Shown here one piece after another: positions 15,089-38,169 of a DNA stretch of 64,000 nucleotides (its first letter is position 1; each line of letters starts with the position of its first letter). This DNA comes from an uncultured virus (IMG/VR IMGVR_UViG_3300003321_000657) (lineage: Duplodnaviria; Heunggongvirae; Uroviricota; Caudoviricetes), in the IMG/VR virus record IMGVR_UViG_3300003321_000657. One strand, given 5' to 3'. The notes under the pieces were generated by a model. That model did not search any database. It was given only the letters and a program-made list of their open reading frames with translations, and was not told where the DNA came from. The position numbers were made by a program, and so were the translations under genes.

Positions 15089-15475
15089 TCAGGCACACGA
15101 CGAGCAGGACGTAATGACCCCATTGGTGATGGTCATGGTCATGGTCTGGTACGAAATATTTCCACCAGAACACGAGATGGTTCCGCACACGATCGTAAAT
15201 GTTCCGTTGCAGTAACCGGAGTTCATCTGACCACTGCCGATCGTGTTGTTGGCGATCTGCGCGTTCGTGATCGTATTGTTCTGGATCTGCGAAGCCGTGA
15301 TCGTGTTGTTGGCGATCTGCGTATTCGTGATCGTCTGATTGGCGATCTGCGCGGCCTGAATCGTCTGATTGGCGATGTTGTAGTTCGTGATCGTCTGCTG
15401 GGCAATATTGCCCCCGTTGCCTCCGGTGATGGACCCCACGGATGCTTGGATAGTCGCAGGCGGTTTGCAAATCAT
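15089..15475 (-). CDS. Short fiber-like protein with 10-aa repeats
   Basis: Six IA(N/Q)xTIxxxQ-type repeats; MICKPPA N-terminus shared with 889..1950. Confidence 0.65.
   Translation of the reverse strand: MICKPPATIQASVGSITGGNGGNIAQQTITNYNIANQTIQAAQIANQTITNTQIANNTITASQIQNNTITNAQIANNTIGSGQMNSGYCNGTFTIVCGTISCSGGNISYQTMTMTITNGVITSCSSCA
15230..15410. repeat. 30-bp tandem repeat (about 6 copies) coding the 10-aa repeats
   Basis: Recurring gtgatcgt...ttggcgatctgcg units. Confidence 0.8.
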
Positions 15476-15817: not shown

Positions 15818-16089
15818 TATTTCACCGCCTTATTCCACTGGTCTGTCCGGAACGGATCTCCTGCCGGAGAGGGCTTGCTGTAATCCACCTGCACCTGCGC
15901 CTGATGCTGCGCGATCGCAATCTCGGTCTGGGCCGATTCCTGCACCGACTGCTCATGAGCCTGAGCCGCTTCGACCTTGTGCTGCGCATCATCCTGAATC
16001 TTTTGCAGGACCGTATTGAACAGTCCGCTCAAGAAGATCTTCAGGAGCGATGTTCCTAGCGATGTCAATAGTCCGACTAAAAAGCTCAC
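15817..16089 (-). CDS. i-spanin (Rz)-like protein
   Basis: GTG start; N-terminal hydrophobic helix + coiled-coil, upstream of the lipoprotein. Confidence 0.5.
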   Translation of the reverse strand: MSFLVGLLTSLGTSLLKIFLSGLFNTVLQKIQDDAQHKVEAAQAHEQSVQESAQTEIAIAQHQAQVQVDYSKPSPAGDPFRTDQWNKAVK

Positions 16090-16700
16090 GCCATTCTCCC
16101 GGTCTTCTGGTACGCCTTGATCTTCGCCGCAGCCTGCGTGAAGTTCACGGTCACGGTCTTGCCGCGTGCGTTTGTGTACGTGAAGAAGCAGTTGTGGTAC
16201 TGACTCTGCCCGGGCGCTGCCGCTGAAATGCAGTTGGCCTGCAAGAGCCCGGCCTGCACTCCGTACTTCACGTACGAATCCTTCAAAGCCTCCGCGCTGC
16301 TCATCGCCGTGGTTGAGCTTCCTGTGGGGAGGAGAGAAGACCACGGCGACAGCAGCGACGGAGTCTGTGGAAAGCTGGGGTATGTCGGGTATCCGTATGT
16401 CGGATAGCCGCCAATCGGCGGCTGATACTGCTGGTAGTACCACGCATTGCCGCCGCCCGGGTAGTACGGATACGGCGACTGTTGTTGGCCGAAATTATAG
16501 AATGGAGCGCCCGGCGTGAAAGGCACGACGATGTCCTGCGGGACCTCGCTGGGCATGTCGACGCTTGGATCGCCGCCAAAGATCGCGTCGAAGTCGTCGG
16601 CAAGTCCAGACAGCATGCCGCCGTTGGTCAGCTTGTTTTTCAGGAAAGCGACCGCGGCAAACACTGCCACCTGTTTGAGTGCTTCTTTAGCAAAACTCAT
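16086..16700 (-). CDS. Tyr/Pro/Gly/Gln-rich putative virion protein
   Basis: N-terminal hydrophobic segment, LSGLADDF motif, low-complexity middle. Confidence 0.65.
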   Translation of the reverse strand: MSFAKEALKQVAVFAAVAFLKNKLTNGGMLSGLADDFDAIFGGDPSVDMPSEVPQDIVVPFTPGAPFYNFGQQQSPYPYYPGGGNAWYYQQYQPPIGGYPTYGYPTYPSFPQTPSLLSPWSSLLPTGSSTTAMSSAEALKDSYVKYGVQAGLLQANCISAAAPGQSQYHNCFFTYTNARGKTVTVNFTQAAAKIKAYQKTGRMA

Positions 16701-16870: not shown

Positions 16871-17254
16871 TTAGCGACGGCCGCGCAGACCCTGAATGCC
16901 GCCACTGGGCGTCACGATCTTCGGAATGTACTGGCCGTAGTAGCTCTGTCCGCCAAAGGGATTGTACTGGTATCCGGGCGCTGGCGGCATCATGGGCGGA
17001 TACGACATTGCAGGAGTGGGGTAGTTCCAGAGCTGGAAGTATGACCCCGGAAATTGAGCGCCCGCATACGGCTGTCCGTACGGAGGAATGCCGTAGTACG
17101 GGCTCGTGTAGGTGTACGGCACCTCCACATCGCTTGGAATGAAGTCGTCGGCGAGGCCCTTCAACCCGGCCAGCGGATTCTCTCCCTTGAGCAGCTTGTA
17201 TCCCACGTACGCAGCGCCAACCAAGGCGGCAGTCTTGATCCACTTCTTGTTCAT
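16871..17254 (-). CDS. Tyr/Pro/Gly-rich membrane protein
   Basis: MNKKW + TM, LKGLADDF motif. Confidence 0.65.
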   Translation of the reverse strand: MNKKWIKTAALVGAAYVGYKLLKGENPLAGLKGLADDFIPSDVEVPYTYTSPYYGIPPYGQPYAGAQFPGSYFQLWNYPTPAMSYPPMMPPAPGYQYNPFGGQSYYGQYIPKIVTPSGGIQGLRGRR

Positions 17255-17267
17255 GTTCACTTCCTCC

Positions 17268-17912
17268 TTAGCTGACAGCTCCAGCGAAATCACCGGATGT
17301 GGCCGGGAAAGCAATGGCGTGCACAGTGGCCGTCTGACCTCCGCTGCACTTGAGTCCCACCTTCTGGAAAATACACAGCTCCAGTGACAGCGCTTCCTGC
17401 GCCTGTAACTCCCACGACAGATCTGACGTGGAGGCGACGACCTGCGCGCCGTCCACGTCGAAAGCCATCCACGCAGAGTTCGATCCCTTATTGCGGATCA
17501 AGAGGCGCGTCATCGTGCCGTGCGCCGACCAGTCCAGTTGCTGGCCGCTCGATGTTACGGAGGCGGCGCGCAGCAAGGGTTCGCGCGGCTCGCGCTGATT
17601 CATCAGCTCCTTCAAAATGTCTTTGAGATCCGCAGGCGGCTCTGGATCGATCTTGATCGGAGCGTCGGTGATCCCGAACGGCTGGACGAATCCGCGCGCT
17701 TCCTGCTGCTGATCCATCAGCCAGTTCTGATAGTCCGCCAGACTGCCCATACCATGCGGCTTCTGCTTGATCAGTCCCATGAAGACGTTGAATTGCAGCG
17801 TGGTCATATCAACCACGGCCAGATTCGCGCCAAGCGACGACACGCCTTGCGGATCGCCGACCACGTTCTGGAAGAACTGCAACTGATCTGACGTCATTCG
17901 TACTCGTGGCAT
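17268..17912 (-). CDS. Putative vertex/penton-associated protein (C-terminal beta-sandwich)
   Basis: The C-terminal ~100 aa has alternating beta strands (RLLIRNKGSNSAWMAFD); lies downstream of the capsid-like genes. Confidence 0.4.
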   Translation of the reverse strand: MPRVRMTSDQLQFFQNVVGDPQGVSSLGANLAVVDMTTLQFNVFMGLIKQKPHGMGSLADYQNWLMDQQQEARGFVQPFGITDAPIKIDPEPPADLKDILKELMNQREPREPLLRAASVTSSGQQLDWSAHGTMTRLLIRNKGSNSAWMAFDVDGAQVVASTSDLSWELQAQEALSLELCIFQKVGLKCSGGQTATVHAIAFPATSGDFAGAVS

Positions 17913-17914
17913 CT

Positions 17915-18829
17915 TTAGCTCCACTGACGCGGCGACACGCGCGTTCCACAGAAGACCATGAAGACAGTGTTTGAGGCCACACTGGTGTCGGCCAAGCTCA
18001 ATTGCAGCGTCTGACCGCCGAAGATCATCCACGGCTCGCTGAGTCTGTACGGATGCTGATTATTCCCAGCGCCCAAGAGATGCGGGATCATGTAGCTGGT
18101 GTTGGATGGCGCATTGACCAGCGACTCTCCAGACTCGGCATTGGTCAGGTTGAAGCTGAAATTGCCGGTCGACACGAACGAGATCTGATGCAGTTCGAAG
18201 TTCAGATCCTGCGGAATCTGAATGATGACGCTGGTGTTTTGCAGCGCAGTCAAGGCGATCGACTGCTGATCCAGAGTCAGGAAATACAGCATCGACAGAT
18301 ATTCTTTGTTCGACAGCCGCTGTTTAATGCGCTGCAAGCTCGGATCTTCGCGCAGCGCGCCATACTTGGCGCAAGAGAAAGCCGCGCGCGCATTGTTGGA
18401 ACCGGCGCTGAGATCCGTGTAAGCGATCGACAAAGCGCGCGTCTCGTCGATATACAGCGCTTCCGGCAGCGGGTACATGTTTCCGCCAGCGCCAAAGATG
18501 GCGTCGATGTGACAGGGCGCGTTCATCAACGCGCGCGGGCTGGCTCCGTCCATGATGAACATTTTGACCGTGCACACGGCCGAACGCTGAACGCCCAGTT
18601 CACTGATCTGCATCGGACCCTGCGCGCTGACGCGCATAGGCGTGGTCGCAGACGTAGACGACGCGCTCATCGTCACTTGATTGTTGGGCGCGTTGGTCTG
18701 CAACATGAACGGCGTTTCCAGCAGCCGTTTTTTATTGACAGCCAGAACAACTCCGTCCTTGCGTGTGATCAAGGTCGGCATGCGTCCCAGACGCGGAGGT
18801 GCTTTCAGTAATGAACTTGGCATCGCCAT
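17915..18829 (-). CDS. Tandem jelly-roll-like capsid protein paralog C
   Basis: Two internal repeats of LxNAP...G...YxLxEx...LxxxxxDxS...N...FxG. Confidence 0.55.
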   Translation of the reverse strand: MAMPSSLLKAPPRLGRMPTLITRKDGVVLAVNKKRLLETPFMLQTNAPNNQVTMSASSTSATTPMRVSAQGPMQISELGVQRSAVCTVKMFIMDGASPRALMNAPCHIDAIFGAGGNMYPLPEALYIDETRALSIAYTDLSAGSNNARAAFSCAKYGALREDPSLQRIKQRLSNKEYLSMLYFLTLDQQSIALTALQNTSVIIQIPQDLNFELHQISFVSTGNFSFNLTNAESGESLVNAPSNTSYMIPHLLGAGNNQHPYRLSEPWMIFGGQTLQLSLADTSVASNTVFMVFCGTRVSPRQWS

Positions 18830-18834
18830 TCCTC

Positions 18835-19851
18835 TTAGTGCGCCATCGCAGCCGGAATCTCGAATTCCTTCTTCACTTCTTCGACAGACTTCAGCGGCGC
18901 ACGAATGCGCTGGCCGCGGAAGGTGTTGAAAATCACGTTGGTCGAGGCCGACAGATCCGTGAACTGGAAGCGCAGGCGCTTACCGGCCGCAATCAACCAC
19001 GGCACGGCCAAGCGTTGCGGATTTTGCGCAGTGCCGATCGCCGCCGAGCGGTGCACCTGACCATTGGTCAGCGAGCGCTTGGTATCCGGGTCTAGCACAT
19101 TCACGAGATAGCTGGTCGATGTCTCGACCGACATCCAGTGCGTCAGCTCCAAGTGTCCATCGTCGCCAACGTCCACGTCCACTTCTGCGGTGCCGCTGGC
19201 GGGAACCGTGACCGATCCGCTCAAGCTACCGTCGTCCGAGCTCAACCAGAACGGGTAGATGTACTGACGGCGCAGGATCAGTTTCTGGATCAGATCCTGC
19301 AAGAGGCAACGATGCTCTTCATATCGCAGCAGTTGCGGGTCCCACGGATTGTACAGGCGTCCATTGAGATACATGCGAGCCGTGGTCGCTCCGCCGCTGA
19401 CCTTCGCGAACTGCGCGACCAGCGAATGCATCGACGGAATCAGCAGCGGTTCTGGGATGCGCGCGGCAAGCTGCGCCGTTCCAGCCAGATTGCGGATATG
19501 ACAAGGCACGTTCATGAACTGAGTCTTGTCGGCCAAATCCTGCAACTGACAGGTGAACGCGGCTGCCGCTGTTCCGTCTGTCGAGTCGGCGAAGGTGATG
19601 CTATGTGCACGGAACGGAGTGCCAGCGCCCTGACCCAGATTCGAAGGAGAGGCGAACGGGATCGTATAGCGCGTCGACACGCGGCCGCTGGCCGGGATCG
19701 AAAGCGCTCCGGACGTAAACGTCGGATCAAAGCCGAGCTGATAGGGGAAGATCGCCTTCTTCCAGAGCTTGGGCGTGAAGAAGCCAGTCTTCGGATCGTA
19801 GTCGACAAACTCGTCTACGAGGTTAGCGCCGACAAAGCTATCAAGGTTCAT
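18835..19851 (-). CDS. Tandem jelly-roll-like capsid protein paralog B
   Basis: FMNVPCHI..AGTAQ..PEPL and LTNGQVH..GTAQNP..VPW repeats. Confidence 0.55.
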   Translation of the reverse strand: MNLDSFVGANLVDEFVDYDPKTGFFTPKLWKKAIFPYQLGFDPTFTSGALSIPASGRVSTRYTIPFASPSNLGQGAGTPFRAHSITFADSTDGTAAAAFTCQLQDLADKTQFMNVPCHIRNLAGTAQLAARIPEPLLIPSMHSLVAQFAKVSGGATTARMYLNGRLYNPWDPQLLRYEEHRCLLQDLIQKLILRRQYIYPFWLSSDDGSLSGSVTVPASGTAEVDVDVGDDGHLELTHWMSVETSTSYLVNVLDPDTKRSLTNGQVHRSAAIGTAQNPQRLAVPWLIAAGKRLRFQFTDLSASTNVIFNTFRGQRIRAPLKSVEEVKKEFEIPAAMAH

Positions 19852-20270
19852 GCCGCCTCCCCATCGAAATTGACGACATTGATCGGCCTCGAAGGCGTAT
19901 CGACCATGACTGGCGCTCCCGGCTTTGGCAGGAGTGCGTCCACCTGCGCCTCCAGATCTGTTTGCGGCATGGGTGGCGGGACGATCTGGGACGGAGGCGG
20001 ATTCCACTGATGCTGGATCGTGTGAATCACCGTCGACGGACCGGATGGTCCCGCCATGTTTTCAACCGCTGCCAAGCGGCGCAGAATTTCTGCGTATGCG
20101 CGATCGTGCGCGCTCTGCGTGAGCTGCGCCTGCTGGTAGAGATACCAGACGTACTGGCGCAGTTGCGTGATCTGCATCGCCATCCTTGCGATCAGCCGAT
20201 CCTTCTGGGCTGGCGTCATGGCTCCGATGCGCGCCACGTTGGCGTTAAAGTTGTCAGACGTTAACAGCAT
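19848..20270 (-). CDS. Hypothetical coiled-coil protein
   Basis: In-operon ORF with an ATGA overlap to the next gene. Confidence 0.55.
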   Translation of the reverse strand: MLLTSDNFNANVARIGAMTPAQKDRLIARMAMQITQLRQYVWYLYQQAQLTQSAHDRAYAEILRRLAAVENMAGPSGPSTVIHTIQHQWNPPPSQIVPPPMPQTDLEAQVDALLPKPGAPVMVDTPSRPINVVNFDGEAA

Positions 20271-20279
20271 TACTCACTC

Positions 20280-20456
20280 CTACAGCTTCATCGGCGCGTC
20301 AGGCGGAATGGCTTGACGGTCGTACGGCATGGGTGGCGGAGGCGGTGGGTTAGGCGGCGGCACTTTGCTGGCCAACGCCGGTTTTTCCAAAACGTTTTTG
20401 TAAACGATGTAGCCAACCACCGCGTACAAGACCCACGTCACCCACTTCTTCTTCAT
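20280..20456 (-). CDS. Small membrane protein, Pro-rich tail
   Basis: MKKKWVTWVLYAVVGYIVYK; TAATG overlap with the upstream gene. Confidence 0.6.
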   Translation of the reverse strand: MKKKWVTWVLYAVVGYIVYKNVLEKPALASKVPPPNPPPPPPMPYDRQAIPPDAPMKL

Positions 20457-20674
20457 TACTGATCTCCGCCGAACTTCTGGACGGTCGAAGCGTTCACGCC
20501 GCCCGTGTAGCCGGGATTGGGTCCGGCTGCCGGGTAGGCTCCTCCCGGGTACATCTGCGGCATGGTGCGCGGAGCTGCGAAAGCCTGCTTCTTGAAGAAG
20601 TGCTGATAGACCAGATAGCCGCCCACGGCCAGCCCGGCGTACATCAGCGCCTTTGACAGCGTTTTCTTTTTCAT
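20456..20674 (-). CDS. Small membrane protein
   Basis: MKKK + TM + GYLVYQ. Confidence 0.6.
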   Translation of the reverse strand: MKKKTLSKALMYAGLAVGGYLVYQHFFKKQAFAAPRTMPQMYPGGAYPAAGPNPGYTGGVNASTVQKFGGDQ

Positions 20675-20677
20675 GAC

Positions 20678-20875
20678 TTACAGTCCCTTCTTTGAGATCC
20701 AGTACGCCGCGCCGCCAATGAGCGCGAGCTGCCACAGCTTCAAGCCGAAGATCTTCTTGCCCGGATTGCGCCGGTACTTACAGATGCCGCAGTTACGGCG
20801 CGTCCTCCGCCCCTTGCGGCGTCCGTACCTGACCTTTCGTCCGCGTCTCCTCATACGTCGAATTCTCCTTCCCAT
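20678..20875 (-). CDS. Arg-rich protein with C-terminal TM
   Basis: Poly-Arg N-terminus, RRNP motif, TM. Confidence 0.65.
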   Translation of the reverse strand: MGRRIRRMRRRGRKVRYGRRKGRRTRRNCGICKYRRNPGKKIFGLKLWQLALIGGAAYWISKKGL

Positions 20876-20879
20876 GGAT

Positions 20880-22127
20880 TCACCGGTAGATCTCCGACTG
20901 GTACACCTGCGGCTTGGTCGCTTCGTAAATCTTGCGCGCCTCGTTCAGGATGTCGCGATCGAGAATCGCGCTGCCGGTGTGAGTGATCGCCACGCCGCCA
21001 AAGGTCATGAACGCGTCCGTCGTCTGATCCGTGATCAGGTTGGTCAATTTGATGCGCAGGTTATTGCGCGGGTGAAGTACGATCGGGTACTCCAGCCAGT
21101 ACGGATTTTGGGCGGTTCCAAAACCAGTGTTCATCGTCACTGGCGTGTTCTGGTAGGCGCGGCCGGTCATGCCGTCGTAAAACTCGGCTGCAAATTTCTC
21201 GGTCGTGTCGCCAGCGGCGCCGGTCGATGTCGCGTGTCCAAAACGCGTGAAGAGGAAGAGCGTCTGATCTCCCGTATTGGTCATGAAGGCGTCGCCCTGA
21301 CCACCAGCGGCCAGCGTGACCTTCGGCTGAGCTGGCGGGAGAGGTACGTCGAGCGTCATCCAGTACGGAGACACCAGCGTCTTGCGTTTGAGCAGCTCCT
21401 GAATGCGCGCGGCCACGGCCACATTATCCAGCGCCTCACGCTGCCACTTGCGCGCCTCGATCGAGATCCCCATCGATCCCGGGCTGGACGTATTCCAGTT
21501 GAAGAACTCGAAGGACAAGTTCTGGTTGCGGCGCATGAACAGGCTTTCGCAGAACTGTCCCGGCTTCTGATTGTCGCCGATGAGATGCAGAACCGGCACC
21601 GGCCCATTCATGAGGTAGCGCTGATAGGCCATGTCTCGGATCTGGCAGGTCATGCGGTTTGAGACGTCGGTGACAGTCGGCGTCAAGCAGACGTAGTTGA
21701 CGTTGGTCACGTCCGCGCCACCGTTGACGGCGCAGGTGGCGTGCGTGTCGTCTGTAATTCCATTGATGGTCAGTGTCGCATTGGCTTCAACGATCGTGCT
21801 GCCGATGGTGAGCTGCGTGAGGAATTTGGTTCCTACGCCGGTAATCGCCGTACCGACAGTGGAGATGGTGCCCATGCCGTAGTTGCTGAGCCCCTGTGCG
21901 CCGGTCAGGAAGTGGAATTCACTCTCCGAGTCCTGTGGACCTTCGACCGGCGTGGGTACGCTGCGGCCGGGATTGGTCGAAGACGTGGCCTTCGGCACCA
22001 TGATCACGCCGTTATTCTGCGACGGAACCACGATGCAGCCTTTGACGCTGCGGCGGAGTGAATTCAAATAGGTCTGCTTGGCGCCGGTCTTGGGATCTGT
22101 CTTTTCGACAAAGGTTGGAAGGGGCAT
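20880..22127 (-). CDS. Tandem jelly-roll-like capsid protein paralog A with inserted domain
   Basis: LMNGPV..GDNQKP and YQNTPV..GTAQNPYWLEYP repeats; extra GTISTVGTAITGVGTKF domain. Confidence 0.55.
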   Translation of the reverse strand: MPLPTFVEKTDPKTGAKQTYLNSLRRSVKGCIVVPSQNNGVIMVPKATSSTNPGRSVPTPVEGPQDSESEFHFLTGAQGLSNYGMGTISTVGTAITGVGTKFLTQLTIGSTIVEANATLTINGITDDTHATCAVNGGADVTNVNYVCLTPTVTDVSNRMTCQIRDMAYQRYLMNGPVPVLHLIGDNQKPGQFCESLFMRRNQNLSFEFFNWNTSSPGSMGISIEARKWQREALDNVAVAARIQELLKRKTLVSPYWMTLDVPLPPAQPKVTLAAGGQGDAFMTNTGDQTLFLFTRFGHATSTGAAGDTTEKFAAEFYDGMTGRAYQNTPVTMNTGFGTAQNPYWLEYPIVLHPRNNLRIKLTNLITDQTTDAFMTFGGVAITHTGSAILDRDILNEARKIYEATKPQVYQSEIYR

Positions 22128-22212: not shown

Positions 22213-23256
22213 TTACACAACGTCTACGTCGTTCTTCTTCTCCGTCTTGAAGCGAGCATTCAGTTCATCAAGGCGCTTGCGGAAGTCAGCGCGCTCAGTC
22301 GATGAAACTTTCAAAGCGTCAAGCATGAGCTGGCATTGCTCGTGCTTCGATTTCATGTATGGCAAGATTCCGGCGAAAATCTGTGGCGTGTACTCTTGAT
22401 CCTCGAAACGTAAGGAACCTTCGAGAGACCACTTGTTCTCTCTCGATCTAAACTTCAGCGTACCGCCAAAGCACTCGTACATGTACTCTAGCGCCTCTCG
22501 CTTAGTGCTGAATATCAATAACCACGGGTAATAATACGTCGTGTCTTTCCAGTACTGCGGCTGCAATTGGAATGTCGAATCTCCGTCCGCCCAGCCAGCC
22601 ATGTAGGCCCAATCAACAGACTTCACGCTTCGAAGATCTCTCTTCGCGCCAGCCGGTGGGCGATGATTTGGAACCGGTTGACATCGCTGGTTAATCTTGA
22701 CGATTCTCTCGCGCAGCGGAGCGCGATCTGGAATCGCCAGATCAATCGCTTTAAGGACGAGTTCGCATTGCTCCTTTTTGATCTTGAGATAAGTCGCAAT
22801 TTTCGAGCAGATATTTTTCACGTTACTCTGCGACTCAAAGAACAGTGCTTTTTCGATGCAATTTTCCCGCTTCTTTCGCTTAACATCAAAGAGACGACCG
22901 CCAAATCTAGTGTGAACAAACTCAAGCAAAGTGCGATCGTTGTTGTAAATCTGAAGTCGACTGGTGTGATGGCTGTTGGCATTGCAGATCGTAATGGAGC
23001 CCTCGGCGTCAACCAGCCCCGCAATGTACGCCAACTCCGTTTCTGGAATAGAATCGGCCGAAATATTGGCTTCGTGCTTCTTGACAAAGCCAATCGTTGG
23101 CGGGACTGGTATCCCTGCCGTCCGCAAAGATCGAACTCTTGAACGACACAGCTTGCACTCCCACGCAAATCCGCGTGGAATGTTGGCTGATCGATGAAAC
23201 TCGGACGACGGCTTTTTGTCCTTACAGCGGGAGCATTGCAAGATCAAAACGCTCAT
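22213..23256 (-). CDS. Free-standing double-motif LAGLIDADG homing endonuclease with N-terminal Zn finger
   Basis: ELAYIAGLVDAEGS and DWAYMAGWADGDS; CSRC..CKLC; AGGAGG SD before ATG 23256. Confidence 0.9.
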   Translation of the reverse strand: MSVLILQCSRCKDKKPSSEFHRSANIPRGFAWECKLCRSRVRSLRTAGIPVPPTIGFVKKHEANISADSIPETELAYIAGLVDAEGSITICNANSHHTSRLQIYNNDRTLLEFVHTRFGGRLFDVKRKKRENCIEKALFFESQSNVKNICSKIATYLKIKKEQCELVLKAIDLAIPDRAPLRERIVKINQRCQPVPNHRPPAGAKRDLRSVKSVDWAYMAGWADGDSTFQLQPQYWKDTTYYYPWLLIFSTKREALEYMYECFGGTLKFRSRENKWSLEGSLRFEDQEYTPQIFAGILPYMKSKHEQCQLMLDALKVSSTERADFRKRLDELNARFKTEKKNDVDVV

Positions 23257-23357
23257 GACAAGTCCTCCTAAGATTCCAATGAGAGGAACCTTATAGGACT
23301 CAACCACTGTAGTCAACCAATTTCTCACTGTTCTCTCACATTTTACTTTTTAATGGG

Positions 23358-23400: not shown

Positions 23401-24419
23401 TTACAATGGACTCCACTGCCGAAGTCCTTTGTTACTCAGCACTTACAGTGCCGGGGGTGGTCATTTCTGCCACCCTCTGCATGTTCTTTTTTTTCATGCA
23501 GACCAGACTATCGCACATCCCGTTTCCGGGACCCTCGGAATTTAGTCGTTCAGCCTGAGCGTTGAGTTGTATCTTCGTCTTCCTCATCGTTCTTGGCCCT
23601 TATTGGCATCTCAGCGTCTAAGTCAATTATCCAAGGTTTTTAAAGGCGGTTTGGCTATTGTTATGCCGCCTTGGCCCACAGTTTCTTCGCATTGCTCATG
23701 CGAATCACCCGGCTCTCATTCCGGGAGTCTAGGCCGACGAGGATGAACGCGATCATGTACGCCGCGGGCGACGCGGGGGTGAAGCCGAAGCTCGAACCCA
23801 GCGTGGTGGGCGTACCGGCGTTGCTGTTCGCGACCGCCACCGGCCACGTGATCTTGGCGTTGAACGCTTCGCCCGGCTTGATCTTCAGCGCGGCGCGGCC
23901 CAGATTGAACTTGTAGATGTTCGAGGGCAGCGGCATGCCGTTGGTGCCGAACGCCTGTTTGCCTGAGTCGCCAGCGCCAGCGGCGACCGTCGAGCTCACC
24001 GCGCCGGTCGGGCCGATTCCCTGCGGGAAGCGATGGAGCTGACAGGTCAGGTACGGGCGACGACCGCTGAACGTAAACTGCACGTACGCGCGGCGCAGGA
24101 TCGCCACCAAACTCTGCATCCCGATCATCGTGTCGAAGACGATGTTGAAGCCGAGGATGCTGAACTCGCGCGGGTAGTCGAGCATCGACGCCTGCGTGAG
24201 ATTGGTGAAGTCGAAATCCTTCGTCGTGGCGACGTTCGCCGTCGACTGCGAAATCGGCCGCTGGAAGTACGTCAGCGACGTCGGAGACGACGTGAAGTCG
24301 AAGTTCTCCGTGTCGTAGATCGGTTCCTGCAAGGGCCGGAGGTACGCCCGATCCAGCGGCGAGTTGATCGCCAGAGGATACGGGTTGGGAATCCCGGTGC
24401 CGGGAGCGCCTGCTAACAT
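23401..24419 (-). CDS. Putative major capsid protein (single jelly-roll-like), spliced: exons 24419..23731 and 23419..23401
   Basis: QEPIYDT..YFQ..TNL..L motif, beta-rich, strong codon bias, AGGAG SD. The spliced product is 235 aa ending LVGLQWSPL. Confidence 0.6.
23420..23730 (-). ncRNA. Group I intron (311 nt, no ORF)
   Basis: 5' splice site after U and terminal G. P7 GACUA/UAGUC, P3 CCUUGGA/UCCGAGG, P8 and P9 hairpins, and a P10-like GACUCC/GGAGUC pairing with exon 2. Splicing restores the frame. Confidence 0.82.
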
Positions 24420-24518: not shown

Positions 24519-25097
24519 CTACATCGTCAGTTCTTCACCGACAATCTCGCCGACGCCGACGACGTGCCGCATGTCGCCGACATCCATGAAGTCGCCGACG
24601 CCGTGAGTGCCCACGGTCCGGCGCAGGTCATTGGGGTCGAGGAAGTCGTTCATGCCCGCCATAAGCTGCGGAGCATTGGTGATGGTCATCGGATTGGCGA
24701 AGTCGCCCATGCCGCTCAGAATCGCGGCCTGCGATCCCGCCAATTCGTCCTGCAAGTCGTAATCGGCCAGACCCTTCAGACCGGTCTTGATGCTCGGGAA
24801 GAACTCGCCGAGACCCTCGGTCACGCCGGAAATCATGCCGCCGACGAACAGTTCGTTGGCGCGCGAAGGCAGCACCTTCTTGCCCAGCATGCCGACCAGA
24901 CCGGCGCTCAGGAGCGTCGTTCCGACCTTGGCGAACTTGTTCGAGCCGAGCACCGGCAGCATGGACTGCGCCTTGCCGGAGATCAGCGAGGTCAGGAAGC
25001 TGCCAGCCACGATCGTGGCCGTGCTCTTGACGACGTTGAGATGAAAGCCGCGAGTCGCTGCCTGCGGCAACTTACCGAGAGTTCCTGCGATGTTCAT
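24519..25097 (-). CDS. Putative major virion membrane protein
   Basis: Gly-rich hydrophobic helices followed by repeated LKGLAD / LSGMGD / MAGMND / HGVGD. Confidence 0.65.
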   Translation of the reverse strand: MNIAGTLGKLPQAATRGFHLNVVKSTATIVAGSFLTSLISGKAQSMLPVLGSNKFAKVGTTLLSAGLVGMLGKKVLPSRANELFVGGMISGVTEGLGEFFPSIKTGLKGLADYDLQDELAGSQAAILSGMGDFANPMTITNAPQLMAGMNDFLDPNDLRRTVGTHGVGDFMDVGDMRHVVGVGEIVGEELTM

Positions 25098-25159
25098 TGT
25101 TGTTCTCCTCAAATTGCCGCGGACAGACCGCCTTCAGACGGCCCTGATCCCGTTGGTTT

Positions 25160-26122
25160 TCAGAACGCCGATACGTCGTAGTCGTGAAGGGCATTGGACA
25201 CTGCCGCCGATTCCGCTACCTGCGCGGGAGCGACGGGGAACGGATACTGCTGGGTCGGACCGGACGGGACCGCGCCCTGAATCTGCGGAGCGATCGCGAA
25301 GTCGCCGATGCCTTCGAGCTGGCTGCCGGAGAACTCGAATCCGTTGTCGAAGGTGTAGCCCAGACCGCTCAGGTTCAGCGCCTTCTTGACCACGCCGTTG
25401 AACGGATCGGAGAGCGCTTCGACCATGCCGCCGATGAACATGCTCTGGCCGATGCCCGGCGAAACGGCTCCACCGATCGCTCCGACGATGCCAGCGCTGG
25501 CGATCCCGGCAGCGATGCCCGGAATGCCTGAGCCCAGCATCGGCACCTTCCGCGCGACGAAGCTGCGCAGGATGCCGTTGGCGATGGCGCCACCGATGAT
25601 CGGCAGGACGCCCGTGATGTTCTTGGGCCGGAAGCCAGCCGTGAGACCAGCCGCTGCCGACGCATTGTGGCGGTAACGCATGTGTTTTCTCCTTCCGGGG
25701 TTCATGAAAGCCAGATCGGCCAATTTGTCTTGGCGCGCACTGGCATACGATTGCTCTGCGGCTAAGCGCCGCGCTCGATTGGCGTCGCGTTCCGCCTTAC
25801 TCGCCGCCCGGCGTTTGCCTGCGGCAATTCTCGAAGACACGCGGCGCAACCGGCGCTCGGCGTGACGCTGACGGCTGGTGCCGCTCGCGCCCCAGAGGCT
25901 CTGGAGCGCTGAGCTGAACTGGCTGGCCAAGCTCTTGGCTCGGCGGCGATGGGAACGGACCCGGCGATGAGAGCGCCGCATCAACCGGCGCGCCAGCGCG
26001 CGATACTTCTTGCGCCGGGAGCTCTTGCGCCAGCGGCCGCGAAGACCATGAGCGCGGCAGGTGCGGGCGATGCCGCCACCATGGTATTTCCGTCTGCGTG
26101 GAGGGTTGAACATGGGAATCAC
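25160..26122 (-). CDS. Arg-rich domain fused to a membrane domain paralogous to 24519..25097
   Basis: Basic N-terminal half with NP motifs; the C-terminal half aligns with the neighbour; internal AAGGAG-ATG at 25681. Confidence 0.65.
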   Translation of the reverse strand: MIPMFNPPRRRKYHGGGIARTCRAHGLRGRWRKSSRRKKYRALARRLMRRSHRRVRSHRRRAKSLASQFSSALQSLWGASGTSRQRHAERRLRRVSSRIAAGKRRAASKAERDANRARRLAAEQSYASARQDKLADLAFMNPGRRKHMRYRHNASAAAGLTAGFRPKNITGVLPIIGGAIANGILRSFVARKVPMLGSGIPGIAAGIASAGIVGAIGGAVSPGIGQSMFIGGMVEALSDPFNGVVKKALNLSGLGYTFDNGFEFSGSQLEGIGDFAIAPQIQGAVPSGPTQQYPFPVAPAQVAESAAVSNALHDYDVSAF

Positions 26123-26126
26123 GCGC

Positions 26127-26753
26127 TTACCTCCGTATCCAATCGGTCACGGAGTAAGTTCCGCGGCCGTAGACAAAATTTGAATTTCGATCGACCTTGC
26201 CGTTTCTGTCGGCGTAGATTAGCGGCGGCTTTCCACCCGCGTCTGTGTGCAGGTGCCGCCACATCGTGTTCGCCTTGTGAGACCCGGCCTTGTTGATCTC
26301 TTTGGTCGCGTAGTACCACGTTTCCGCTGCGCGACCGACCATCTTGAACGGCAACTGAATTTTTCGTTTCGACAGCAGGAGAATGCGTTTGCCCTTGGCG
26401 TCGCTGAAGGGTCTCCAGCTTCCCCGGAGCGTTTGCTTTCCACGCGCTGTCTTTAAAACCACCCGATCCGACTTCCCCATTCCGACCAGCGCGCCCAGCT
26501 TCAACCTCTTGAGCGCCTTGTCGTCGAACCACGAAATGCGGGTCGAGTGCGGGATCTTCCAGAACTTGCGGAACCGGCGTTCGGCCATCTTCCCGGATGC
26601 CGATCGAGTCGCCTTGCGCCGGTTCCGTATCGCTCGCATGGACGGTTTGCGCATGATTCGAGACATCGACGCTTTCGCATGCCGCCGATTGCGGCGACAT
26701 GCTTTGCGTCGTCTCGAAATTCGCGTAACCTTCCATCGTCGTTTCCTTCTCAC
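26127..26753 (-). CDS. Arg/Lys-rich putative DNA-binding core protein
   Basis: Very basic N-terminus followed by a globular C-terminal domain. Confidence 0.6.
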   Translation of the reverse strand: MRRKRRWKVTRISRRRKACRRNRRHAKASMSRIMRKPSMRAIRNRRKATRSASGKMAERRFRKFWKIPHSTRISWFDDKALKRLKLGALVGMGKSDRVVLKTARGKQTLRGSWRPFSDAKGKRILLLSKRKIQLPFKMVGRAAETWYYATKEINKAGSHKANTMWRHLHTDAGGKPPLIYADRNGKVDRNSNFVYGRGTYSVTDWIRR

Positions 26754-26769
26754 GGCAGCTCCCGCTGCT

Positions 26770-27030
26770 TCAGCGCATCTTCCGGGCGAACGCCCACGCG
26801 GCCTTGAAGCGCCGCTTGGGACTCATCCGCATCAGCGCGGCGCGGTGCTTGCGCCATACGGCCTTCATCAGGCCAGCGCTCTTGCGGAAACCAGCCGAAG
26901 GCTTCCGGCGACCGCCTGACTTGCGGCGGCGACCGCCACCCCGGCGCTTTCTGCCGAAGAGCTTCTTCTTGCCGATCTTCTTGCACACGAACACCGGGTT
27001 CCGGCGTCGGCGATGTCTGCGTCTGCGCAT
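26770..27030 (-). CDS. Protamine-like Arg-rich protein
   Basis: MRRRRHRRRRNP... Confidence 0.65.
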   Translation of the reverse strand: MRRRRHRRRRNPVFVCKKIGKKKLFGRKRRGGGRRRKSGGRRKPSAGFRKSAGLMKAVWRKHRAALMRMSPKRRFKAAWAFARKMR

Positions 27031-27070
27031 GGCTTTGTCCTTTCTGAAAACGTTTCCTAAAAACCACGCT

Positions 27071-27388
27071 TTACGCTGCGCGCCGATACGCACGACCGGC
27101 TGCCCGCATGCGGGCGCGGATGCCGCCCTTCTTATGGCGGCGCAGCCATTTCTTCATGAACGCGCGCCAGCCGCTGCGGCTGCCCTTGCGCCGACCGCTC
27201 TTGCGGCGACGGCCCTTGCCCTTGCGGCGCTTGCGGCGGTAGCTGCAAACCACCTTGTGGCGAACATGGCAGCGCAGGCGACCGCGCAGGCGGTAGCGGC
27301 GCTTGCCACGGCTGCGGTGAGCTTTCCGACGTCGTTTCATGGCTGTCTTCCTCCGTCTCGGATTCAACACTGTCACAATCTCGGGCAT
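27071..27388 (-). CDS. Protamine-like Arg-rich protein
   Basis: VLNPRRRK; Arg/Lys make up roughly half the residues. Confidence 0.65.
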   Translation of the reverse strand: MPEIVTVLNPRRRKTAMKRRRKAHRSRGKRRYRLRGRLRCHVRHKVVCSYRRKRRKGKGRRRKSGRRKGSRSGWRAFMKKWLRRHKKGGIRARMRAAGRAYRRAA

Positions 27389-27391
27389 GGC

Positions 27392-36541: not shown

Positions 36542-38169
36542 ACCCGGCAGCTCCTGACTGCGTCGACGACTTCGTCCACGCTCGGCAAGTAGTCGGCGAT
36601 ATTCTGACTTTCGCCGATGATCTCAGCGATCACCATCGGATGCGGATAGGTCGGCTTATACTTCGGGTACGGATTGCAGGTCAGCTTGTTCTGCACAGCG
36701 ATCGTGCGGTGATCGACGCGGCCTTTGCGGAATGGGAATACCAGCTCCGGCCGCTTGCAGGTGGCAATCATGACGATCCAGTTGTCGAAGGCTCCGGCCG
36801 CATGGACTGGGCTACTGTCGTTGGTCAGCAGGATCGGACACGTCTTAATCAGCCCGAACATGCCACCAAGCGACAGCTTGCCGCGAGTATCCACGCCGTT
36901 CTCCGGACAGTCGACCGGCAGCGAGCGGTGGTCGCCGAAGAGCACGACCGTGTAGTCGCGCGCCAGCTTATTGATGATCCGCTGCCACCAGTCTTTTGGA
37001 AACGTTTTCGAATTCCAACCAGTGCCAGCGTGGATAGCCAGCGGCGGTCGGACCGGCCTGCCGCCGAAGGCAGTCGTTTCGAAGCCAGCTTTTTTGAGCT
37101 CTTCCCAGTCCTCCTCCTTGACCTCCAGCTCGATCTGTTTCTTCTCGACCGGCAGGACATTGCGCAGCATGGCATAGGCCGCGAAGTCGTGATTGTGGAC
37201 GGCATGGTAGGGGAAGTACGTCCGCGTCTGACTGTCGTTCGGCGGATGCGTGGTCATTGCACAGAACGGCTTACCTTCGTCCATCTCGGCCACGCGATAG
37301 GTCACCTTGACATTCGGATAGCGCCGGAAGTGACTCAGGACGCGCGGGTATGCGGTCACGATCCGCCACAAGACGTTCGGATCGTTCTCGTACACCTCCT
37401 CGATCGCGTAGCGCATGACTGGCTCGGCTTCGATCACGTCGCCAATTCCGCCAGCCGCTTCGACGTAGATCCGCATTTGCGCCGGGGTCTTATTCTTCCA
37501 GCGGTCCAAGTCTTCCTTCATGCCTTCGGCGATGCGTGGGAAGTCGTTCGATCCGGCGAAGTGGATGATGTGAGCCGCGTGCCGTTCTTCGCCCGTCCAC
37601 GGATCTTGAATGGACATGCGGTTGAATTTGTATTCGAGGGAGAAGATCGGGATCTTGAACGCGTACGCGCGTGCGTTCAGTAGCGACTGCTCGTAGAAGT
37701 TGTCGACGATCTCATCCGGCCACGAAAACAGATCCTGATGCTGGCGCGAGACGACCATCACGCCACTGTTGAAATAGTTGCTGGCCTCTGGCGGCTTTTC
37801 CTTGTCGATCTCCAGCTTGTGGCGATCCAGTTCGATATACATCGCGCCCAGCCGCTCCGGCGCTACAAAGCCTTCGCAGTAGGCTCCGATATGAGTCTCC
37901 GGCACGAGCTCGAATAGATCCGGGCACGTCTCAGCATTGATCAGCGCATCATTATCGAGGAAGATGATGCGATCGAACTGGTCGAACCAGTGATGCAGGG
38001 CTTCAAACTTACACCACGGCACGCTATGCGGATAGTCCTCGCGCACCTGCGTCACTGCGAACTTCGCGCCGATGCGCTTGGCGTATGCCTTCATCTGCGG
38101 CTGCGTGATCTCGCCGATCATGCGATGATTCGCGCCGCCGACGAGAGTCAGAACCAGTTTCTTGCTCAC
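36538..38169 (-). CDS. Fused glycosyltransferase (GT-A/GT8-like + GT9-like)
   Basis: FLDND, FNSGVMV, EQSLLN and IIHFAG, followed by GGIGD...NDSSPVHAAGA. Confidence 0.85.
   Translation of the reverse strand: MSKKLVLTLVGGANHRMIGEITQPQMKAYAKRIGAKFAVTQVREDYPHSVPWCKFEALHHWFDQFDRIIFLDNDALINAETCPDLFELVPETHIGAYCEGFVAPERLGAMYIELDRHKLEIDKEKPPEASNYFNSGVMVVSRQHQDLFSWPDEIVDNFYEQSLLNARAYAFKIPIFSLEYKFNRMSIQDPWTGEERHAAHIIHFAGSNDFPRIAEGMKEDLDRWKNKTPAQMRIYVEAAGGIGDVIEAEPVMRYAIEEVYENDPNVLWRIVTAYPRVLSHFRRYPNVKVTYRVAEMDEGKPFCAMTTHPPNDSQTRTYFPYHAVHNHDFAAYAMLRNVLPVEKKQIELEVKEEDWEELKKAGFETTAFGGRPVRPPLAIHAGTGWNSKTFPKDWWQRIINKLARDYTVVLFGDHRSLPVDCPENGVDTRGKLSLGGMFGLIKTCPILLTNDSSPVHAAGAFDNWIVMIATCKRPELVFPFRKGRVDHRTIAVQNKLTCNPYPKYKPTYPHPMVIAEIIGESQNIADYLPSVDEVVDAVRSCRV

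Follow-up and report, generated by a model that had tools for sequence, protein, structure and literature searches.

The DNA analysed here is a stretch of 64,000 nucleotides (the window) from an uncultured virus (IMG/VR IMGVR_UViG_3300003321_000657), and the genes in question are three neighbours on its minus strand, P0001, P0002 and P0003, which are abbreviated P1, P2 and P3 where gene order is compared between genomes. A preliminary description had proposed that the three are paralogs, that each product carries two copies of one repeat marked by a shared motif, and that the products are double jelly-roll (DJR) proteins encoded alongside a single-domain capsid protein.

20880..22127, minus strand: P0001, putative first DJR paralog, 415 aa; paralogous to P0002, with two domains detected by jelly-roll hidden Markov models (HMMs)
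18835..19851, minus strand: P0002, predicted second DJR paralog, 338 aa; subject of an AlphaFold2 model and of structural matches
17915..18829, minus strand: P0003, putative third DJR paralog, 304 aa; paralogous to P0002, with two jelly-roll domains

Pairwise BLASTP comparison joins the three proteins directly, with P0002 matching P0003 at E 2e-20 (26% identity over 222 aa) and P0001 at E 2e-11 (25% identity over 231 aa), and with P0001 matching P0003 at E 9e-4. Some matches run across the halves of the proteins, such as that between the C half of P0002 and the N half of P0003 (E 4e-6). Each trio protein contains two homologous domains of ~125 aa apiece. To compare them, an 88-sequence family alignment was cut at the domain boundary, and the resulting N-half and C-half profiles were aligned by hhalign over 123 columns with a probability of 99.8% and E 5.9e-29. 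The motif MN.P.H ... GTAQ.P ... L..P ... DLSG..N ... G is present in both half consensus lines, and single-domain HMMs find two domains in 18/18 proteins of six complete trios. In lone sequences the repeat is marginal, such that BLASTP matches the N domain to the C domain at E ≤ 1e-3 in 5 of these 18 proteins. A repeat that is weak in lone sequences and strong in profiles points to an old duplication, visible only to profiles. Both the paralogy of the three genes and the two motif-bearing repeat copies in each protein had been read correctly in the preliminary description.

Lineage-specific insertions interrupt this common plan. P0001 carries an insertion of ~75 aa in its first jelly roll (residues ~77–150), which 15 of the 20 aligned family members have, and the P0003 orthologs of two related contigs, L002 (L002:11669-12817) and L007 (L007:11207-12394), are 382 and 395 aa long, their HMM match being split by an insert. 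These insertions in P0001 and P0003 orthologs may form surface towers.

Predicted fold of the trio proteins

What fold would two such domains adopt? AlphaFold2 prediction for P0002 from 8 homologs gave an unusable model with a predicted local distance difference test score (pLDDT) of 58.6, and prediction from 88 sequences gave the model used here, with pLDDT 93.7 and a predicted template modelling (TM) score of 0.89. The model places jelly roll 1 at residues ~34–167, a long helix at 178–197 and jelly roll 2 at 198–316, both jelly rolls being eight-stranded beta domains. DSSP assigns helices at 119–122 and 268–271, in both cases where the fifth strand region of the domain gives way to the sixth, and by our own reading of the strand lettering these short helices fall after F and F′. 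An alpha-helix after strands F and F′ is given as a feature of DJR major capsid proteins (MCPs) in passages of PMC8812541.

The model was compared with 48,161 representative chains by VIA-align. The top match is the STIV MCP (2bbd) at Z 11.7 and a root-mean-square deviation (rmsd) of 4.2 Å over 235 residues, which covers both domains and model residues 34–329. Other DJR capsid proteins follow, namely PRD1 P3 (1w8x, Z 9.3), PM2 P2 (2vvf, Z 8.5) and those of PBCV-1 (8.3), phiCjT23 (7.8) and FLiP (7.6), with EhV-201, faustovirus and others also among the lower matches. Cellular DJR-fold proteins are matched as well, including three DUF2961-type enzymes (8ic8 at Z 11.2, the DUF2961 protein 4kq7 at 10.4 and 7v1v at 10.1) and PHM and PNGase F (8.6). 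Nine matches reach Z ≥ 8 and almost all are DJR-fold proteins; the list corresponds to the DJR-fold protein set treated in passages of PMC8812541. Weak matches to one domain only are those of HCIV-1 (Z 5.9) and HHIV-2 (Z 5.6). The best Foldseek match of the model in BFVD is an unnamed protein of 256 aa (UniProt I1ZBI0; TM score 0.54 by query and 0.69 by target, rmsd 4.5 Å), and a P0002 ortholog has no named neighbour in the ESM Atlas.

A DJR fold for P0002 is well supported by this model, and a DJR fold for P0001 and P0003 would follow from their homology to P0002 over both domains. The preliminary description had named structure prediction as the check on its proposal of DJR paralogs, and the proposal withstands it, with a confident P0002 model whose best match is a DJR capsid protein and with two paralogs homologous to it over both domains.

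The trio proteins share with STIV, PRD1, PM2, FLiP and phiCjT23 the predicted fold and relative domain orientation, the helices after F and F′, and a gene module with small hydrophobic proteins. In those five viruses the genome is ~9–20 kb long with a single MCP gene, and the capsomers are homotrimers, whereas the window has three paralogs, belongs to a group with much larger genomes and shows no sequence match to them. With the cellular DJR proteins (DUF2961 glycosidases, PNGase F and PHM) the shared feature is again the fold, at Z 8.0–11.2. Unlike DUF2961 and PNGase F, the trio proteins have no Pfam match and are encoded in a conserved viral module instead of a carbohydrate-utilisation locus. 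Passages of PMC8812541 report that the two jelly rolls of DUF2961 proteins are structurally similar and that these proteins form capsomer-like trimers.

Related loci and the order of duplications

An exhaustive HMM search gives a widespread family of 525 representative clusters at E ≤ 1e-3 and of 219 at E ≤ 1e-10. The P0002 family is absent from Pfam and PHROGs, none of P0001–P0003 matches a family of either database, and a search of PDB sequences with the P0002-family profile returned nothing relevant. No relatives were found in a deposited phage collection (P0002 and P0004, the latter lying upstream of P0001 and treated below) or a plasmid collection (P0004), nor in a scanned viral-contig collection (alignments A1 and A3) or genome-contig collection (A1). 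The related loci comprise metagenome contigs L001–L011 and two contigs of metagenome-assembled genomes, L012 and L013, deposited as Verrucomicrobiota bacterium and Acidipila sp. Contigs that bear relatives reach 121 kb for P0002, 169 kb for P0001 and 164 kb for P0004, and the smallest related contig, L013, measures 77 kb.

Gene order at these loci is strictly kept at low sequence identity. The succession of a transglutaminase-like protein, a basic protein, a P0004-like gene, P1, P2 and P3 occurs in the window and in L002, L007, L011 and L013, and L009 begins at P1, while the identity of the syntenic loci to the window is just 29–49%. In the window and in 4/4 loci long enough to show it, the gene immediately upstream of the P0001 ortholog is P0004-like. 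Of 12 related loci, 11 have the P0003 ortholog directly after that of P0002, and the twelfth, L008, stops at the contig edge. Exactly three DJR genes per genome are present in the window, L002, L007, L009, L011 and L013, and neither the 64-kb window nor the 77-kb contig holds a fourth copy. In the window 5 nt separate the P2 stop from the P3 start, and P1, P2 and P3 are contiguous in L009 and L013. The three proteins are 29%, 37% and 37% identical to those of L013, and 40%, 39% and 46–55% identical to those of L002, in the order P1, P2, P3; in all, P0001 has 12 relatives at 35–54% identity.

How did three genes with two domains each arise? A maximum-likelihood tree of 36 single domains from the six genomes (18 N and 18 C) resolves all six domain classes as monophyletic (five starred, one with 92/93), and a branch with support 96/93 places all N domains on one side and all C domains on the other. 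This split indicates that jelly-roll duplication and fusion came first and triplication of the DJR gene second. An ancestral single jelly-roll gene would thus have been duplicated in tandem and fused into a DJR gene, which would then have been triplicated before the sampled relatives diverged. Judged from sequence, both the duplication and the triplication predate that divergence. The suggestion in the preliminary description that the locus bears on the single-to-double jelly-roll transition holds, since the domains are homologous in sequence and duplication precedes triplication.

To our knowledge, no report on classical DJR capsid proteins describes homology of the two jelly rolls at the level of sequence. 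In passages of PMC8812541 the similarity of the two jelly rolls of DJR proteins is treated as structural only, and the origin of the DJR fold is argued from structure. The sequence likeness found here, together with a tree that places duplication before triplication, bears on that origin.

Capsid role and capsomer composition

No terminase, portal, HK97 capsid, tail tube or tail sheath gene was detected in the window (83 open reading frames (ORFs) against PHROGs, 42 against Pfam), and no terminase, portal, HK97 capsid or tail gene in the whole 77-kb contig (84 ORFs against Pfam, 61 against PHROGs). The terminase, portal and HK97 marker set of tailed phages (Caudoviricetes) is thus undetected in 64 kb of the window plus 77 kb of a related contig, which have only the structural module in common. 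From fold and genomic context together we infer a capsid role. On balance, the trio genes probably encode the main shell proteins of large bacterial viruses that appear to have no tail and belong to a lineage not yet described; the proteins would probably assemble as A-B-C heterotrimers, and the shell would probably enclose an internal membrane. Of the six jelly rolls in a pseudo-hexagonal capsomer, each trio protein would contribute two, and one copy each of P0001, P0002 and P0003 per heterotrimer would yield a capsomer with three different outer faces. The membrane is suggested by small hydrophobic-helix proteins encoded in the module.

The rationale for a heterotrimer is based on strict co-conservation of the three genes in a fixed order, on their similar divergence rates, on their tight spacing, which fits equimolar co-translation, and on analogy with the Trimcap polinton-like viruses of eukaryotes. 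Trimcap genomes are described as carrying three divergent DJR MCP genes each, and in passages of the same source AlphaFold 3 models favour the heterotrimer, with an interface predicted TM score of 0.89 against 0.19–0.25 for homotrimers (bioRxiv 10.64898/2026.06.19.733378). Three divergent DJR genes per genome are likewise found in the window and in L002, L007, L009, L011 and L013. However, Trimcap viruses are small eukaryotic viruses with an A32-like ATPase, whereas the contigs here measure 77 to ~169 kb, have yielded no such ATPase and carry bacterial-type genes (a lipobox lipoprotein near the trio, a restriction-modification system and phage recombination genes). The trio, unlike the Trimcap proteins, matches no named MCP family, and its two jelly rolls are alike in sequence. 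The trio lineage would resemble Trimcap in its working and is not a member of it.

A complex of P0001 (residues 58–415), P0002 and P0003, each with its own alignment, was also predicted. The score was 0.79; it fell to 0.74 when an unrelated protein took the place of chain 1 and to 0.00 in both partner-swap runs, and the prediction is used neither for nor against the heterotrimer.

An alternative hypothesis is that all three proteins are capsid proteins that each form a homotrimer of their own, one building the facets and the others occupying special positions (peripentonal, at a unique vertex or bearing fibres). The model for such an arrangement is PBCV-1, in whose capsid five MCP variants occupy particular positions, mostly as homotrimers, according to passages of PMC9617893; the same passages describe heterotrimeric capsomers of paralogous DJR proteins in one capsid as well, types V and VI, with a 2+1 composition. 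The lineage-specific insertions in P0001 and P0003 orthologs could serve as docking sites in such a shell. In PBCV-1, however, one MCP dominates and the variants sit at few special positions, whereas the three genes here are equally conserved. Paralogs for rare lattice positions are usually more variable and dispensable, yet all three are kept in every sampled genome in fixed order and with similar divergence, and their tight spacing suggests equimolar output. We consider separate homotrimers unlikely, and nothing points to a specifically peripentonal role of the trio.

Adjacent paralogous jelly-roll genes also occur in Helvetiavirae (Sphaerolipoviridae and relatives), which have two single jelly-roll MCP genes whose products form heterodimers and are thought to build pseudo-hexameric capsomers. 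The weak one-domain matches to HCIV-1 and HHIV-2 are a further likeness. Unlike the separate jelly rolls of Helvetiavirae, those of the trio are a fused pair in each protein, and the fusion would predate the triplication.

Several observations weigh against major shell proteins of a tail-less virus. In VIA-align, the scores of cellular DJR enzymes come close to those of capsid proteins, so the fold alone is no proof of a capsid role. Foldseek against the PDB brought no DJR capsid protein, its best matches being PHM, vicilins and Cry toxins at TM scores ≤ 0.37. Neither the 64-kb window nor the related loci nor the 77-kb contig yielded a packaging ATPase of the FtsK/HerA (A32-like) type; the results of a Walker-A scan were limited to a helicase, a thymidylate kinase, an AAA+ protein and chance hits, and the sole P-loop candidate of the 77-kb contig is an AAA+ protein absent from the window. 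FLiP-like DJR viruses without an A32-like packaging ATPase are described in passages of PMC8812541. The window is 64 kb of a contig of ~130 kb and the 77-kb contig may be incomplete, such that tailed-phage genes could lie outside both. The ESM Atlas labels related clusters as "Viruses, commonest Uroviricota". Finally, P0004 is more conserved than the trio, so P0004 rather than the trio could be the main shell protein.

A further alternative is that the trio are DJR-fold carbohydrate-binding or glycosidase-like proteins of the DUF2961 or PNGase F type, with a receptor-binding or accessory function in a large tailed phage whose genes for head and packaging lie outside the regions in view. The Z scores of 8.6–11.2 to DUF2961-family enzymes and PNGase F, close to those of capsid proteins, would fit, as would the Uroviricota labels and the many glycan-related genes and fibre- or spike-like proteins of the window. 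However, 0/88 family members match DUF2961 (PF11175) or any Pfam glycosidase family, and the same scan found no MCP family either. The near-invariant columns of the 88 sequences are Pro and Gly only, and no acidic catalytic residue is fully conserved; several His, Glu and Asp columns are well conserved and none is invariant (H118 in 79/88, E134 in 76/88). Tailed-phage hallmarks are lacking throughout the 64 kb and 77 kb, and the trio is flanked by genes for small hydrophobic and very basic proteins, not by sugar-uptake genes. On this evidence an enzymatic or glycan-binding trio is improbable.

The last point concerns the single-domain capsid protein of the preliminary description, which had been given no coordinates and is taken here as P0004, a 252-aa ORF at 23661-24419. 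Its gene appears to be split, and a homing endonuclease gene lies beside it.

23731..24419, minus strand: P0004 exon 1; conserved virion-module protein of ~235 aa when spliced, a candidate vertex or single jelly-roll protein
23420..23730, minus strand: intron-like structured insert of 311 nt near the P0004 3′ end
23401..23419, minus strand: putative P0004 exon 2, which completes a Leu codon and continues with QWSPL and a stop; compared with alignment A3
22213..23328, minus strand: free-standing LAGLIDADG homing endonuclease between P0004 and P0001 (Pfam PF00961, E 1.6e-6; phrog_5046, E 1.8e-20)

Relatives of P0004 end in ...GLxWSPL, whereas the window breaks off five codons before that end and reads on into 22 unrelated codons. 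The sequence for QWSPL and a stop is found at 23418-23401, 311 nt downstream of the break. If the boundaries are set at 23731/23730 and 23420/23419, U is the last base of the 5′ exon and G that of the insert. The insert RNA has a folding z score of -6.03, with 0/100 shuffles as stable, and no Rfam match. P0004 thus seems, from its sequence, to be interrupted by an intron-like insert.

Could P0004 itself be the MCP, and the DJR trio a minor specialised capsomer, for example a peripentonal one, as the preliminary description would have it? P0004 is the best-conserved member of the module, with 80 homologs, mostly 50–80% identical, against 47–57% for the relatives of P0002. It hosts an intron-like insertion and adjoins a homing endonuclease gene, which is typical of highly conserved genes. 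In the ESM Atlas, the named clusters closest to a P0004 ortholog are those of two capsid families, PM2 P2 and PRD1 P3, with values of 0.76–0.78 that serve as a lead only. On the other side, P0004 gives a probability <1% against jelly-roll profiles (hhalign) and 0 PDB matches in a profile search, and Pfam at E ≤ 10 gives scattered single matches only. Three conserved genes with ~1,050 codons in total would be more than a minor capsomer needs. In known DJR viruses, moreover, the small protein encoded beside the MCP gene is usually the penton, which by position makes P0004 a candidate penton. It is more likely that P0004 is a vertex or other core virion protein and the trio the bulk lattice than that P0004 is a single jelly-roll MCP, and a minor role for the trio appears distinctly improbable.

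The fold itself and the idea of several MCP paralogs in one virus are already known, and triple DJR genes have been described in Trimcap. What is new is the occurrence of such a trio in large genomes of bacterial type, a sizeable unnamed family, a strictly conserved triplication and jelly rolls that are homologous in sequence. A literature search found no description of large bacterial viruses with three DJR genes. The cultured bacterial and archaeal viruses with DJR capsids that we know of have small genomes and a single capsid gene. Large phage genomes are taken as tailed phages in the literature, a view shared by the review PMC13359090; if the trio genes do encode a capsid, large bacterial viruses without a tail would have been overlooked as an entire lineage. 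The conserved triplet also bears on the evolution of multi-gene capsomers.

We tentatively put forward a more specific possibility, which is doubtful as a whole: that these are bacterial jelly-roll viruses with large genomes (~100–170 kb), the first of their kind, with obligate A-B-C heterotrimers and a DJR duplication that is separate from the classical one or far better preserved. The last element is proposed because the two jelly rolls are still homologous in sequence at the level of their profiles. If true, it would make the single-to-double jelly-roll transition directly accessible at the level of sequence.

Neighbouring genes and the rest of the window

The genes around the trio and P0004 form part of the same module, and one further member of it lies at a distance.

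20678-20875, 20456-20674, 20280-20456 and 19848-20270, minus strand: four small ORFs between P0001 and P0002, three with a lysine-flanked hydrophobic helix and one very basic
17268..17912, minus strand: conserved ORF of ~214 aa directly after P0003; L002, L007 and L009 have homologs at this place
24519..28747, minus strand: conserved upstream part of the module, syntenic with L002, L007, L011 and L013
24519-25112, minus strand: ORF of the conserved upstream part, in the module
26770-27093, 26127-26753 and 25160-26122, minus strand: very basic proteins, with 44 Lys plus Arg in 107 aa, 62 in 208 and 55 in 320
27392-28747, minus strand: transglutaminase-like protein (Pfam Transglut_core, E 4.2e-9), which recurs in L002, L011 and L013
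9457-10533, minus strand: caspase-like (Peptidase_C14) protein, which recurs in L007 and the 77-kb contig

Five small proteins encoded on the minus strand (20678-20875, 20456-20674, 20280-20456, 16871-17254 and 16086-16700) share a lysine-flanked hydrophobic helix of ~18 residues (e.g. KKW..A.V.GY.VYK). Possibly paralogous to one another, they may be membrane or cementing proteins; a simple hydropathy threshold does not call them transmembrane. The first of them is also very basic, with 25 Lys plus Arg in 65 aa. The basic protein at 26127-26753 is conserved in L002, L007, L011 and L013, and the very basic proteins of the module may be core proteins that condense the genome. The caspase-like and transglutaminase-like proteins, both of the conserved module, are candidate maturation proteases.

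Elsewhere the window is virus-like, with replication genes of phage type, and encodes a RecE/YqaJ exonuclease, a Dam methylase, a helicase, a Holliday-junction resolvase, HNH and LAGLIDADG endonucleases, and fibre- or spike-like proteins. At 15089-15475 (minus) lies a 128-aa protein of IANQTI-type repeats with 1 Lys or Arg and 0 Asp or Glu, which matches the tail-fibre family phrog_892 at E 2.2e-9. Three tandem FkbM-type methyltransferase paralogs of 265–268 aa each occupy 33882-36276 (minus), and the next gene, at 36538-38169 (minus), encodes a 543-aa protein with two glycosyltransferase domains.

The 77-kb L013 contig carries genes for a family A DNA polymerase, a primase, a topoisomerase, ThyX, an integrase and a restriction-modification system. 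Just downstream of its trio, at L013:15099-18680, it encodes a thioredoxin-domain protein of 1,193 aa that has no counterpart in the window. The window in turn has three tRNA-like genes at 28945-29186 (minus), one of which is a tRNA-Ile with anticodon AAT; the other two have odd anticodon loops, for which ARAGORN reports "anticodons" of 2 bases and 4 bases.

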